From a virus (taxonomy: Duplodnaviria; Heunggongvirae; Uroviricota; Caudoviricetes), in IMG/VR virus record IMGVR_UViG_2636416089_000002: 17,336 bases of DNA. One strand, written 5' to 3'. Under the pieces are notes generated by a model. The model did not search any database. It was given only the letters and a program-made list of their open reading frames with translations, and had not been told where the DNA came from. Both the position numbers and the translations under genes were made by a program. This document shows positions 9,668 to 13,642 of this stretch, one piece after another. The number at the start of each line of letters is the position of its first letter. Within the stretch, counting starts at the first letter, position 1.

Positions 9668-9858
9668 GGACGCACCTCCGCCGTAGTTACGTATTTAACC
9701 GGGCTACCTTTCATTGAGATGGTTTCACACATCTCTGCCGCTTTCAGTTCCGCTGTTTTTCTGGATTTATAGCGACGGTGCCAGACAGATACATCCGTGC
9801 GAACTGATACATCGTTTCTGTATTCCGTAGTGGAGATGATGATTTCGTAACTAATCAT
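9664..9858 (-). CDS. Hypothetical 64-aa protein
   Basis: ORF with 4-bp overlaps to both neighbours. Confidence 0.4.
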   Translation of the reverse strand: MISYEIIISTTEYRNDVSVRTDVSVWHRRYKSRKTAELKAAEMCETISMKGSPVKYVTTAEVRP

Positions 9859-10706
9859 GGGCGAACCTCCTTGTCAGAACCATTCAGCCTGGAATCAACA
9901 AGTGCAGCGCCAAAAACAGCATCACCAACACGGTCGTACAGTTTGCTAGCCAGCGGAGATTCAACGGCCTTAAGCATTGGATAAAGCTGGCTTGTCCAGA
10001 TTTGATGGATTTCACGCAAATGCAGGTATACGCCTCTGGCGTTTCGTGCGACAGCTGACATATCAGACGTATCGGCACCTGATAAACTCTTCTCCATCAG
10101 GTTAAAGGCGTTGATGTATGCCTCTTTGAACCGGGCAGCACGTTTACCAGTGAAGCCCATGGCAAGGAACGCGAAGCCATCGCGGGTGATTTGATAGCAA
10201 GGTAGTTTGCGGCCTGATGCGTCGGTGTATTCACTTAACACAAAATTGTGTTCAGTAAATTCAGCGGAACATTCGAGGTTTCTAATTCTATCTAAAACCC
10301 GCTCATGCCGTTTAGTAAAGTAATTAGCTACTGCAAGAGATGTGGTGACAACGCGACCATTGATAATCGTGATTTCAGGGTGAGATTGGGTTGGGAGAGT
10401 AGTCATGGTGACAGCCCCTATGTTGAATTCAATGAACTCACCACCAAGGCTTTCCACGACCATATAGGTGGTGAGACGTACAGGGGTGGAAATACCGGTC
10501 AACATAGAACCCGGCCCAACCGAAATTGGCCCTGCACGCCACACCATAATTTGGGCGTAACGATGCTCATGACACGAAAAAACCGCATGAGCGCGGTTGT
10601 GCTCTATATTGAATTTCGGGTTTCCACGCCCGGCACCCGCTTTATAAGGTGCAGAGACAGTGTAACGTCCCGAAATTGCAGAATCAATATGCTGGTGGCG
10701 GATCAT
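9855..10706 (-). CDS. Rha-family phage regulatory protein (antirepressor-like) with 100-codon N-terminal extension
   Basis: Rha-like core begins at the internal Met (codon 101, ATG at 10406, preceded by AGGGG): MTTLPTQSHPEITIINGRVVTTSLAVANYFTKRHERVLDRIRNL. The full ORF starts with ATGA overlap to the upstream gene. Confidence 0.65.
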   Translation of the reverse strand: MIRHQHIDSAISGRYTVSAPYKAGAGRGNPKFNIEHNRAHAVFSCHEHRYAQIMVWRAGPISVGPGSMLTGISTPVRLTTYMVVESLGGEFIEFNIGAVTMTTLPTQSHPEITIINGRVVTTSLAVANYFTKRHERVLDRIRNLECSAEFTEHNFVLSEYTDASGRKLPCYQITRDGFAFLAMGFTGKRAARFKEAYINAFNLMEKSLSGADTSDMSAVARNARGVYLHLREIHQIWTSQLYPMLKAVESPLASKLYDRVGDAVFGAALVDSRLNGSDKEVRP

Positions 10707-11365
10707 AGGTGCACCTCCCGTTGATTACGACGGAACGCGGAGTGACCCTGGACGGTTTCAGCCTCATGGAATGCTTCAATACAGCTCTCGTAGTACCGCA
10801 TTGTGCGCAGACTTAACCCAAGCTGAAGCATCATCAGACCATCAAGGGTGATGTAATAACCACGCAGGGAGTCACCGTAGATGTGATAAGTACCCGGTAT
10901 GAAATTGCGGGTAAAAAACTCGCGTGAGCAGTTCAGATACTCGATTTTGTCGACGATGTTCTGGTGCATGCGCTTAAAGTGGCAGGCAACATGCAGGGAG
11001 AAAATAACGGCCTTGCCGTTGACAACTTCAATTTTGAGGAATGGGGAAGTTGGGACTGTAGCCATGATGGCAGCCTCCGTATGCAATGGATAACTTCCAC
11101 CACCGGAGCTGCGAAACTCACTGGTGGCAGACTGAACAGGGTTCGCAGTACCGGCGCATACGGAAACCGGCGAGCCTTTCGGCTCCCCTGCCCAGCCCAC
11201 CATAATTCTGGCGTGCGTGAGCGCGGACGATAAAAAAGACGCTGGCGCGTCGTATATCGCCGTATGCAATTCCGGGCTGCGACCCCCGGCACCCGCTTTA
11301 TAAGGTGCGGAGACAGTGTAACGTCCCGAAATTGCAGAATCAATATTTGGTCTTGAAATGATCAT
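10703..11365 (-). CDS. Rha-family phage regulatory protein, tandem paralog with 100-codon N-terminal extension
   Basis: Rha-like core from internal Met at codon 101 (ATG at 11065, GGAGG 8 nt upstream): MATVPTSPFLKIEVVNGKAVIFSLHVACHFKRMHQNIVDKI. The first ~60 nt are near-identical to the paralog. Confidence 0.65.
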   Translation of the reverse strand: MIISRPNIDSAISGRYTVSAPYKAGAGGRSPELHTAIYDAPASFLSSALTHARIMVGWAGEPKGSPVSVCAGTANPVQSATSEFRSSGGGSYPLHTEAAIMATVPTSPFLKIEVVNGKAVIFSLHVACHFKRMHQNIVDKIEYLNCSREFFTRNFIPGTYHIYGDSLRGYYITLDGLMMLQLGLSLRTMRYYESCIEAFHEAETVQGHSAFRRNQREVHL

Positions 11366-11450
11366 ATAGCTGCTGATATCTTTAGAACTGTTCTTGGATG
11401 TTTCGGAGCCGTTTTATGCGAAACAGCTCCCCGTTATTGATGTTGAGTGA

Positions 11451-11474
11451 GCCGGGTTACTCCCGGCTTTTTTT
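11451..11474 (+). terminator. Candidate plus-strand intrinsic terminator between two minus-strand Rha genes
   Basis: GCCGGG-ttact-CCCGGC followed by T7 on the plus strand. Confidence 0.45.
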
Positions 11475-12181
11475 CATCGCTGCCAACCAATAACCTGAAA
11501 TAACCCCATTTTCGGGTGATACCAGCGAGTCCCTCGCGGTTCTGCTTCCTCCATAACCCGATAAAAAGCAGCCATAAACGGTTCCACAGCAACAATTGCG
11601 CGACGTGACAACAATCCGTCCGGCGTCATGAACTCATGTGTGTCTGTAGGAATTTGATAGGCGTTCACCAGATTGCGGCATTTATCATCTGACAAACCGG
11701 TTTTTGCTTTCAGTTGGCGATATCCGGCATAGCCCTCACGAATAGTGCCCTTTTTAATTTGCTCGACTGTTTCAGCAACGTGGCTGACTTTTTCTTCCAC
11801 CTGAGTGATCCGTTTCTGTTGGCGAACGGCTTCAAGAGCCATCGCGGCAACCATTTCGATTTCGCTCATTGGCTTACGGATCTGTTCTTCCAGTTCGCGC
11901 CAGCGATCTACCAGGCGAGCTGTGAATTCAGGACAGAGCTGTGCGACGACAATGATGCTGTCGCGCTTACCTTGTTCGCCTTCGAAGATGTAAGCACCTA
12001 CATTTCGTTTTAATCCTAAGTTGTTGATTATTTCGAAATTCGCCATTGGCGCACTTCGAATAATCCCCTTATCCATGAGCCTTTCAATGCTGCGCTTAAC
12101 ATCTTTGTGTTGGCTGCCCACCAACTCTGCGATTTCAAGGCTGGTCATGGATGCTTTGCCGTTAAAAATTGCGGTGTTCAC
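11474..12181 (-). CDS. Rha-family phage regulatory protein
   Basis: NTAIFNGKASMTSLEIAELVGSQHKDVKRSIERLMDKGII matches the Rha N-terminal pattern. Start placed at GTG 12181 (AAGGAG 6 nt upstream); in-frame ATGs at 12187 and 12223 are alternatives. Confidence 0.7.
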   Translation of the reverse strand: MNTAIFNGKASMTSLEIAELVGSQHKDVKRSIERLMDKGIIRSAPMANFEIINNLGLKRNVGAYIFEGEQGKRDSIIVVAQLCPEFTARLVDRWRELEEQIRKPMSEIEMVAAMALEAVRQQKRITQVEEKVSHVAETVEQIKKGTIREGYAGYRQLKAKTGLSDDKCRNLVNAYQIPTDTHEFMTPDGLLSRRAIVAVEPFMAAFYRVMEEAEPRGTRWYHPKMGLFQVIGWQR

Positions 12182-12300
12182 TGCCATCTCCTTACGGATA
12201 AATTCTTTTAAGATTCCGCACATTCGTACTTATTGGTGCCGAACCTTCCTTCAGTTATCCTTTTGATCCCTATAAACAAAAGAACCAAAGGAGGTTCGAC

Positions 12301-12594
12301 ATGAAAGTTCAGGCCGTTGGTTTATTCTGGTTTCGCGATGCGATTCAGTATCATGAGCTCAAAAATATTTTTACTGATGCTGATGTGCTCTCCGACAGTT
12401 ACACCGAGTGGAAACACGACGCTGAAAAATTGATTAAGCGTGTCGAAAGAGGCGGGCAACGAGTTATTAAAGTTGAAGCGGATACAGCCGAGTTCATCGC
12501 TTGGTGTACAAGCGAAGGCATTGGAATCAATGCCGAAGGTAGAATGCAGTTCGCATCCTTTAAGGCTTACCAACAACTTCTCAGCGAACGCTAA
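12301..12594 (+). CDS. Hypothetical 97-aa protein on the repressor strand
   Basis: Strong RBS AAGGAGG 6 nt before ATG; no recognisable motif. A 110-aa antisense ORF (12322..12654) fully overlaps it and cannot be excluded. Confidence 0.5.
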   Translation: MKVQAVGLFWFRDAIQYHELKNIFTDADVLSDSYTEWKHDAEKLIKRVERGGQRVIKVEADTAEFIAWCTSEGIGINAEGRMQFASFKAYQQLLSER

Positions 12595-12664
12595 TGTGAT
12601 CGGGGCAATCGAAATGGTTGTCCCATCGTATTTAATAGTTATTTTTTCGCTCATATCACCACCA

Positions 12665-12874
12665 TCACTTCCCATCTTCCGTGTGCGCTAGGCTTGGGTG
12701 TGTATATGGAATGCTCGGATCCAAATGACAAAGAATGGCAACATCCTCCGGAACACCTCGCGTTTTCCACTTTCCAACACCTTGACTGCCACGAGGCCTT
12801 CCTTTCTTTGGGAACCTGCGACCAATAGCGGCATTGGTTTTAAATTGAATTTTTAATATTTCATAAAGGGTCAT
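12665..12874 (-). CDS. Hypothetical 69-aa ORF at the position expected for cro
   Basis: Only minus-strand ORF divergent from the repressor gene across a 112-bp region holding repeated motifs; no obvious HTH and a weak RBS, so this may not be a gene. Confidence 0.2.
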   Translation of the reverse strand: MTLYEILKIQFKTNAAIGRRFPKKGRPRGSQGVGKWKTRGVPEDVAILCHLDPSIPYTHPSLAHTEDGK

Positions 12875-12927
12875 TCTTTAGTCTCACACCAGATACTTTG
12901 TTATCCAACGATGTTAACCACAGGAAT

Positions 12928-12964
12928 CCAAAGTATCAAGAAATTCTGTTACTTTAGTATCAAC
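12928..12964. promoter_or_regulatory. Candidate operator/promoter region upstream of the repressor gene
   Basis: AGTATCAA at 12932-12939 and 12956-12963, sharing the motif found downstream of the repressor gene. Confidence 0.4.
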
Positions 12965-12985
12965 AGCCATGAGAGGAGAAGAAAA

Positions 12986-13642
12986 ATGAAGTCTTTAGGT
13001 GAACGTCTCATCAACGCACGGCAAAAAGCTGGGTTAACACAAGATGCGTTGGCTAAAAAAGCTGGGATCACCAGAGTTGCAATCAGTAAAGCCGAGCAAG
13101 GCCTTACAAAAAGTTTCAACGGTGACACCCTTTTTAAAGTTGCAGCTGCACTGCGGTGTTCACCGCAGTGGCTTCAGAACGGAGATGAAAAAGATAAGCA
13201 TTGGGAAAATAATGTTAAGAGCTGCCCACAGAGAGACACAGCACACTCTTACCCTGTAATTAACTGGGTTCAGGCAGGATTATTCGCAACTTCTGGTGAT
13301 GACTACAACATGTATGATCAGGATAATTGGAGGCATTCTGTAAAATACGCTGGTGAGAGGGGGTTCTGGCTGGAAGTGCACGGAGACTCAATGACTTCGC
13401 CCGTAGGAATAACATTTCCTGAAGGAATGTCGATCCTTGTCAACCCAGATAAAGAAGTTTTTTCAGGGTGTTACGTCATCGCCAGAAAAAAATCTACCAA
13501 TGAAGCAACATTCAAAAAATATATTTCTGACATGGGAAAGGCGTTTCTAAAGCCCCTTAATCCACAATATCCAATCATAGAAATGGACAATGATTGCGAA
13601 ATAGTAGGTGTTGTGGTTGATGCCAGGTGGGATATTTTCTGA
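12986..13642 (+). CDS. cI: CI-like prophage repressor (N-terminal HTH, C-terminal LexA/S24 autopeptidase domain)
   Basis: MKSLGERLINARQKAGLTQDALAKKAGITRVAISKAEQG, Ala-Gly cleavage site (VQAGLF), GDSM serine and downstream Lys. RBS GAGGAG before ATG 12986; the ORF track starts further upstream at 12911. Confidence 0.85.
   Translation: MKSLGERLINARQKAGLTQDALAKKAGITRVAISKAEQGLTKSFNGDTLFKVAAALRCSPQWLQNGDEKDKHWENNVKSCPQRDTAHSYPVINWVQAGLFATSGDDYNMYDQDNWRHSVKYAGERGFWLEVHGDSMTSPVGITFPEGMSILVNPDKEVFSGCYVIARKKSTNEATFKKYISDMGKAFLKPLNPQYPIIEMDNDCEIVGVVVDARWDIF

Follow-up and report, generated by a model that had tools for sequence, protein, structure and literature searches.

The DNA analysed here, called the window in what follows, is a 17,336-nt stretch (IMG/VR record IMGVR_UViG_2636416089_000002) of a lambdoid Escherichia coli prophage of phiP27/Stx-phage-like type (Stx, Shiga toxin), which has the Stx2a-converting phages and phiP27 among its close kin. 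The cI-like repressor gene is found on the plus strand and the cro-like, cII-like, Rha and replication genes on the minus strand, which identifies the latter set as the early-right (PR-type) operon. Within it, the gene for the Rha-family regulator Rha-249 is followed by antirepressor-type genes and then by the replication genes. Rha-249 is named ‘Rha family transcriptional regulator’ at RefSeq and matches the Pfam model Phage_pRha (E = 3.7e-08). Between it and the next open reading frame (ORF), Ash-Rha, lies an intercistronic spacer that carries no annotated feature at RefSeq. We describe a terminator, a promoter-like site and a second hairpin in and around this spacer, and the antisense small RNA (sRNA) to which they may belong; coordinates are collected in Table 1.

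An identical copy of the stretch from 11300 to 11520 is found in E. coli O55:H7 RM12579. The stretch is present in 223-268 of 5426 complete E. coli genomes, in every case on the chromosome, and the carriers of the spacer include O157, O145, O111, O55 and ST131 strains. The spacer comes in three alleles, ~70% identical: A, carried by the window, B, of SE11 type, and C. Allele A is also that of O145:H28 RM13516, and further carriers are O157:H7 F6294 and Z866 and the ST131 strain 4993. Most other contexts lack the spacer, and translation of the Ash ORF is coupled there to that of the gene before it; the operon can thus do without the 108 nt, which form an added module.

The spacer ends in an intrinsic terminator for plus-strand transcription. 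Its 5′ arm is G11449 followed by AGCCGGG (11450-11456), its loop TTACT (11457-11461) and its 3′ arm CCCGGC (11462-11467), leading into a run of seven Ts. Our terminator scan called the structure on the plus strand only, with eight pairs of which six are G-C, and it ranks second strongest among the terminator-like sites of the whole window. Such sites are found more often than in shuffled sequence, both locally (9 versus 2.8 expected, standard deviation 1.9) and over the whole window (34 versus 17.3, standard deviation 4.2). The last T of the run, T11474, is the first base of the tca (TGA) stop codon (11474-11476) of the minus-strand Rha-249 ORF. Seen from the minus strand, the hairpin has A7 before it and UCACUCAAC after it, with no U-tract behind, and is therefore no canonical terminator for Rha-249. 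The terminator with T7-T8 is kept in all variants of the three alleles and in 223 of 223 E. coli genomes with the region, and we hold it very probable that it functions on the plus strand. These results bear out what a first-pass annotation of the window had noted here: a plus-strand hairpin with T7 (placed at 11451..11474), no plus-strand gene ending at it, and a homopolymer that on the minus strand precedes the hairpin.

Other roles for the hairpin were considered and rejected. The only plus-strand ORF at the spacer (31 amino acids, 11398-11493) runs through the terminator, lacks its ATG in allele C and encodes a wholly different peptide in allele B, which disposes of a small protein gene. 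A nut site (boxA/boxB) was dropped: within three mismatches, the window holds no second copy of the hairpin except an unrelated stem inside the sRNA STnc100. The minus-strand loop of the terminator, AGUAA, is one that we take not to be GNRA-like, unlike the boxB type. Nor is the terminator a constant partner of Rha-249-type genes, as 13 homologues in other genera are translationally coupled to the next gene without a hairpin. In Stx1a phages the Rha gene is likewise coupled to the next gene with no hairpin between.

About 60 nt upstream of the terminator hairpin, the promoter scan gave one plus-strand promoter-like site, TTGAAA, 18 nt, TGaTATCTT (11353-11382), and called it again at the equivalent place in the SE11 allele. 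Its -35 element lies in the first codons of Ash-Rha and its extended -10 just before the ATG, so a transcript starting in or near the 5′ end of the adjacent gene, as the first-pass annotation had supposed, would have a conserved promoter-like site in the right place. Counting from the -10, the RNA is predicted to begin near 11387-11390 and would end in the T-run.

Conservation between alleles A and B comes in blocks. In the promoter it is 6/6 for the -35, 2/2 for the TG and 5/6 for the -10, against 8/15 for the promoter spacer; allele A has TATCTT as its -10, where alleles B and C have TATTTT, and the TG is conserved. In the predicted RNA, the start region is divergent (5/13, with a 6-nt indel), the 5′ block that follows is identical (10/10, and likewise in the third allele), hairpin 2 has 13/33, the linker 11/16, the terminator 18/20 and the T-run 7/7. 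This pattern matches what one would expect of an sRNA gene. For comparison, the promoter block of isrK, an RNA gene on the other strand, is 29/29 identical between alleles.

The 5′ block, GTTCTTGGAT in DNA and GUUCUUGGAU in RNA, may be a seed, a partner for GUUGAG in the linker, or a signal in the mRNA of the opposite strand. A second site complementary to it was not found in the 17-kb window, and RNAduplex run over the window gave only unrealistically long duplexes, with no useful outlier. A metagenome scan with the pattern GTTCTTGGAT-N25-55-GTTGAGYG yielded no new spacer alleles; only A and B were recovered, and the pattern proved too loose, 118 of its 120 matches being due to chance. Linker, hairpin and U7 together resemble what we take to be the usual Hfq-binding 3′ module of enterobacterial sRNAs.

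A second hairpin at about 11405..11430, also noted in the first pass, is present there. Its outer helix pairs GGAGC (11405-11409) with GCUCC (11426-11430) and its inner helix GUUUU with GAAAC; the two are split by a C.A mismatch on the plus strand, where the minus strand has a U.G pair. The spacer region folds better than shuffled sequence on both strands (z = -3.0 for plus, -4.15 for minus), and the plus-strand folds of alleles A, B and C have z = -3.5, -4.5 and -3.3. All three alleles share one plus-strand architecture of 5′ arm, hairpin 2, U-rich linker and terminator. The stems of hairpin 2 are unrelated in sequence (GGAGC.GUUUU, GGC..ACUUC and GGC.CUGC), and all of them fold. Indels misalign hairpin 2 in the MAFFT alignment of the alleles, so it was assessed allele by allele. 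On that alignment RNAalifold paired the 5′ block with GUUGAG of the linker as a long-range helix. Alleles B and C fold hairpin 2 slightly better on the plus strand, and a polymorphism of allele B (GAGG) pairs on the plus strand only; in allele A, the minus strand alone gives a perfect 10-bp stem. The asymmetries thus point both ways, and the strand-specific evidence is the T-run and the promoter, not hairpin 2. The idea that hairpin 2 is an additional target or mimic of the antisense RNA C4 was dropped, because its loop, UAUGC/GCAUA in alleles A and C, is not kept in allele B, while all three share the C4 loop CCGUAUGCG; the two loops show no covariation.

Table 1. Features of the spacer and its surroundings; positions are those of the window except in the last three rows, which refer to Pseudomonas-phage contigs
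Feature	Position	Strand	Details
Intercistronic spacer	11366-11473		108 nt, between the Rha-249 gene and the Ash-Rha ORF (both minus strand)
-35-like hexamer	11353-11358	+	TTGAAA; within first codons of the Ash-Rha ORF
Extended -10	11374-11382	+	TG 11374-11375, one base, TATCTT 11377-11382; 18 nt from -35; just upstream of Ash ATG
Predicted small RNA	11387-11474	+	~85-88 nt; 5′ end (near 11387-11390) predicted from -10; 3′ end in T-run
5′ block	11390-11399	+	GTTCTTGGAT (RNA GUUCUUGGAU); 10/10 identical in three alleles
Sequence complementary to 5′ block GUUCUUGGAU			AUCCAAGAAC
Hairpin 2	11405-11430	undecided	GGAGC-C-GUUUU / GAAAC-A-GCUCC
U-rich single-stranded linker	11431-11448	+	CCGUUAUUGAUGUUGAGU; precedes terminator; GTTGAG invariant in alleles
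Intrinsic terminator	11449-11474	+	stem-loop 11449-11469 (GAGCCGGG-UUACU-CCCGGCUU); T7 at 11468-11474
cI-like repressor gene	12911-13642	+	
cro-like gene	12665-12874	-	early-right operon
cII-like gene	12322-12675	-	early-right operon
Rha-249 gene, Rha-family regulator	11474-12223	-	ORF 249 amino acids; RefSeq 235 amino acids; upstream of spacer
Ash-Rha ORF	10703-11365	-	220 amino acids; ATG 11365-11363
isrK promoter (by eye)	11315-11343	-	-35 TTGATT 11343-11338, 17 nt, -10 TACACT 11320-11315
isrK-like RNA	11232-11308	-	Rfam RF01394, 57 bits versus gathering 50; own terminator (hairpin 11251-11238, T-run)
C4 antisense RNA	11120-11207	-	Rfam RF01695, 80.4 bits versus gathering 45
Pseudomonas cassette, L143 (phiPSA1)	1590-1700		
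Pseudomonas cassette, L044	9940-10025		
Pseudomonas cassettes, L225-L304			

Comparable cassettes recur upstream of antirepressor genes in other phages. A plus-strand terminator of another sequence (GGCCGG...CCGGCC, then TTTCTTATTT) lies at the stop codon of this Rha gene in phiP27 and in 26 E. coli genomes, with only 52 nt between it and the GTG at which a BRO-N antirepressor gene begins. A promoter can be picked out by eye, TTGATT-18-TGaTATTGT (score 8/12, not called by the scan), from which an RNA would start at the BRO-N start codon and cross its Shine-Dalgarno sequence (SD). Scanning viral contigs for terminators with that of the window as query, and so with a bias, brought up many Pseudomonas-phage contigs with GAGCCGGGTCACTACCCCGGC-T7 just upstream of an ant or Rha gene; stem and loop of this subtype are near-identical to those of the window, and E. 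coli alleles B and C have GAGCCGGGTCACTACCCGGC-T7.

An unbiased sample was therefore chosen by the Ant protein of phiPSA1 and not by the terminator, giving 75 unique Pseudomonas-phage loci. The scan flagged 69 of the 75, and in ~60 an antisense hairpin followed by T5-T8 lies just upstream of ant; sense-strand terminators were found at only 10 of the 75. The antisense hairpins comprise at least 12 different, fully compensatory stems. Upstream of the hairpins the best promoter score was 8.53 out of 12 on the antisense strand; the other strand reached 6.81 and shuffles 6.72, and scores of at least 9 were obtained at 34 of 68 loci on the antisense strand versus 2 of 68. At 55 of 68 loci the -10 shares bases with the ant ATG, and its median distance from the hairpin is 26 nt. 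The cassettes would give RNAs of ~45-55 nt over the ant ribosome-binding site. No Rfam family covers this antisense promoter-terminator cassette, no published description of it was found, and the Rfam sar model had no match at E <= 0.01 in the phiP27 and phiPSA1 cassettes.

Within its first ~25 codons, the Pseudomonas ant ORF also holds a long inverted repeat, CGCGACACGTTTTC...GAAAACGTGTCGCG (L044 9870-9930; L143 1560-1600; and relatives). Both arms of the repeat keep double changes (GACACG/CGTGTC, GCCACG/CGTGGC and TCCACG/TGTGGA). An operator is one possible interpretation and an RNA hairpin another, and the repeat may correspond to the isrK/C4 module.

The spacer element has no match in Rfam at gathering scores. 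A permissive cmscan of 11250-11600 (E up to 10) gave only weak, terminator-driven matches, the best being sroD (24.5 bits versus gathering 50), and none to sar (RF00262). The positive control was sound: in the P22 immI record the sar model matched 532-599 with 97.8 bits, between the arc stop codon (529-531) and the ant ATG (600). The element is thus an analogue of sar and not a member of its family. Likeness to P22 sar, suggested in the first pass, holds for the layout, the orientation and the 3′ end on the upstream stop codon; it fails for the Rfam match, and with the predicted 5′ end the RNA would not cover a ribosome-binding site as sar does. In both phages an antisense sRNA gene, predicted in the case of the window, is placed in the spacer between a regulator gene and an antirepressor-type gene, with a backward-firing promoter at the 5′ edge of the antirepressor gene and a 3′ hairpin abutting the stop codon of the upstream regulator. 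The window RNA would be longer, however (~85 nt versus 68-69 nt), and would stop ~22 nt short of the ATG, whereas sar covers the antirepressor SD. The window has a canonical T7 terminator where the sar tail is weak; its upstream gene is Rha and not Arc, and its presumed target also carries a C4/isrK module.

Lambda oop offers a second comparison. It too is a ~80-nt RNA with two hairpins against the PR operon, with its promoter in an intergenic gap and its end at the 3′ end of a regulatory gene, and it works through a perfect duplex and RNase III (PMC12197685). The neighbouring genes differ, and oop overlaps ~55 nt of the cII coding sequence, whereas the window RNA would overlap Rha-249 by a single base of its stop codon and so has no coding 3′ overlap of the oop type. 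The C4/isrK RNAs of immI-type loci (P1, P7, Gifsy-1) are found at the same locus as the spacer element, 60-250 nt downstream, and share its apparent purpose, RNA control of an antirepressor-family gene. Unlike it they are sense-strand RNAs that act by loop-loop pairing within the same transcript. The Rfam matches to C4/isrK (11120-11308) and a weak match to c4-a1b1 (11269-11321; clan CL00128) all fall outside the spacer, so the element is not one of them. The Pseudomonas cassettes, such as that of phiPSA1, have the same place and orientation relative to an early-right antirepressor gene, but their RNAs would be ~45-55 nt long without a hairpin 2, with the -10 over the ant ATG and the RNA over the SD; their promoter position is not homologous to that of the window. 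Phage antisense RNAs of the sar/oop kind are already known; what is new is the candidate at this spacer, which lies outside the sar family.

We read the spacer as holding a dedicated sRNA gene of ~85 nt on the plus strand, whose product would be made and act in cis in the manner of sar and oop. Our probability for this is about 0.55, and lower for the exact target. The proposed sigma-70 promoter (TTGAAA, 18 nt, TGaTATCTT) would drive the gene against the PR-type operon, either constitutively or independently of PR. The RNA would pair perfectly with the intercistronic part of PR read-through transcripts. Pairing might limit Ash-Rha expression, of antirepressor type, either by blocking a standby region before the start or by exposing the duplex to RNase III, and might also destabilise the Rha-249 message, as lambda oop does that of cII. 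The antisense RNA would then be a third RNA layer on a gene under C4/isrK control, and the terminator would shield the Rha-249, cII-like and cro-like genes from antisense transcription. Antirepressors can trigger prophage induction without cleavage of the repressor, and their control thus determines how easily prophages, Shiga-toxin phages of this type included, are switched on. Should the reading be right, one antirepressor-type gene would be under three RNAs (C4, isrK and the antisense RNA), and the principle of P22 sar, known from one phage group, would be a common design that includes the Pseudomonas phages.

Several observations weigh against the antisense sRNA. Promoter-like matches occur in the window at chance density (21 versus 20.8 expected), so that the case for the promoter rests on its conservation; this is known from three alleles only, and could partly be owed to the Ash start codon, which overlaps the site, or to the isrK promoter next to it. 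The scan did not call the promoters of phiP27 and phiPSA1. In P22 it misses the experimentally known Psar and the sar terminator too, and its silence on the other two thus weighs little. With its 5′ end ~22 nt from the Ash ATG, the predicted RNA would leave any SD there uncovered, and the start of the Rha domain at 11065 is 300 nt away and already under C4 control; as predicted, the RNA would therefore not lie over a ribosome-binding site as sar does. A conserved 10-nt 5′ block is superfluous for a purely cis-antisense role. In hairpin 2 of allele A, the internal U.G pair favours a minus-strand RNA, and two polymorphisms (GGAACC and AGAGCC) retain pairing on that strand only. The long-range helix proposed by RNAalifold has no covariation or compensatory changes among the alleles. 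Finally, the papers searched, among them one on IsrK, a 2025 review of phage sRNAs, one on Hfq-CRAC in enterohaemorrhagic E. coli, a preprint on the Pas sRNA and one on the Salmonella prophage transcriptome, describe no RNA at this spacer and hold no transcript data for it.

The hairpins might instead act on the minus strand, as structure in the intercistronic mRNA of the PR operon that stabilises the 3′ end of the processed Rha-249 message or affects translation of Ash, with the T-run incidental. Any read-through from PR certainly transcribes the spacer on that strand, folding there is no worse than on the plus strand (z = -4.15 versus -3.0), and in allele A the perfect 10-bp hairpin and the pairing of both polymorphisms belong to the minus strand only. 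We nevertheless consider this unlikely as the whole account. T7-T8 is kept in every variant without a known minus-strand need, the differing hairpins of phiP27 and ~60 Pseudomonas loci have their T-runs on the antisense strand only, alleles B and C with the GAGG polymorphism favour the plus strand, and the conserved promoter hexamers would go unexplained. A role in mRNA structure and a plus-strand sRNA are in any case compatible with each other. A different possibility is that the terminator merely insulates Rha-249, cII, cro and the PR/PRM switch from stray antisense transcription, whether this comes off the isrK promoter region in the divergent direction or enters from further left, and that any RNA is a by-product without a target. 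It sits exactly at the border of the regulatory genes, the divergent promoters stand back to back, and no trans target was found in the window. Insulation, however, calls for no conserved 10-nt 5′ block and for no hairpin that persists while its sequence takes three forms, and the equivalent RNA in Pseudomonas phages and in P22 lies exactly over the antirepressor ribosome-binding site; we rate insulation alone as quite improbable.

Pathogenic E. coli commonly carries prophage sRNAs that have targets in trans (PMC4104026; bioRxiv 10.64898/2026.05.13.724894), which speaks for a trans-acting RNA of the Hfq type, in which GUUCUUGGAU would be a seed directed at mRNAs of host or phage and the antisense position would be secondary. 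So do a 5′ block conserved 10/10 amid a diverging body and a 3′ module of U-rich linker, hairpin and U7. Against it, the 17-kb window holds no other complementary site, the full-length duplex scan was uninformative, and the small size (~45-55 nt) and variability of the Pseudomonas cassettes leave no room for a common seed; we give this explanation little credence. The antisense sRNA that we prefer can also be extended, at present as speculation. The window element and the Pseudomonas cassettes might together form a widespread, uncurated sar-like class that guards Rha, BRO-N and Ant genes in early operons across lambdoid phages of Gammaproteobacteria. The E. coli form would be an enlarged one whose 5′ block has a trans target, and a three-RNA circuit of antisense RNA, C4 and isrK would set antirepressor output and prophage induction.

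The gene downstream of the spacer is itself composite. The first-pass annotation had placed the terminator between two Rha genes; this is right for Rha-249 upstream, while the downstream ORF is Rha only in its last 120 amino acids, with an internal start at 11065 and an SD (GGAGG) at 11074-11078. Its first 100 codons coincide with the Rfam matches to isrK and C4 on the minus strand. RefSeq names the long ORF ‘ash family protein’, and ash-type ORFs (10703-11365 and 9855-10706) match PF10554 in Pfam (E = 9e-08). The frame stays open through isrK and C4 in 46 distinct variants. Elsewhere the Ash start codon overlaps the stop of the upstream gene (BRO-N in phiP27, Lar, and the second module of a tandem), so the ORF is probably translated from PR-derived transcripts. 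One DNA stretch thus seems to serve both for RNA genes and for a translated ORF, isrK/C4 being fused in frame to the Rha domain.

The C4 loop CCGUAUGCG (11163-11155) is complementary to GCAUACGG, a sequence present twice, within isrK (11267-11260) and directly over the Rha-domain SD (11084-11077). This fits C4 blocking translation with isrK as a decoy, an arrangement that follows the logic of P1 immI and Gifsy-1 IsrK (PMC4825925). The isrK promoter, described experimentally in Gifsy-1 (PMC4825925), was not called by the scan because its score is 8/12; the Rfam isrK match begins at 11308, 7 nt past the -10. It stands back to back with the antisense promoter, the two -35 elements being 9 bp apart. 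In E. coli ETEC4090 (L020, about 1440-1500) an insertion sequence element with an integrase-core transposase is found exactly between the isrK promoter and the antisense -35, where it splits the spacer module off from isrK/C4.

A second isrK-C4-Rha module follows on the minus strand (Rfam matches at 10464-10652, ORF 9855-10706). The two tandem immI-like modules (9855-11343) differ in their C4 and isrK sequences, and the second ORF has an ATGA overlap with the stop of the first. On some related contigs (e.g. L028) the isrK promoter is present in three copies. Farther upstream in the operon, two ORFs overlap on opposite strands within 12301-12675: one of 97 amino acids on the plus strand (12301-12594) and one of 117 amino acids on the minus strand in cII-like position (12322-12675). 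Neither has a Pfam match; RefSeq annotates the plus-strand ORF in SE11-type prophages and, for the RM12579 type, lists a ‘transcriptional regulator’ on the minus strand. Within 3045-3561 on the minus strand, the sRNA STnc100 (139 bits) adjoins three tRNA genes, a late-region site typical of Stx-type prophages.

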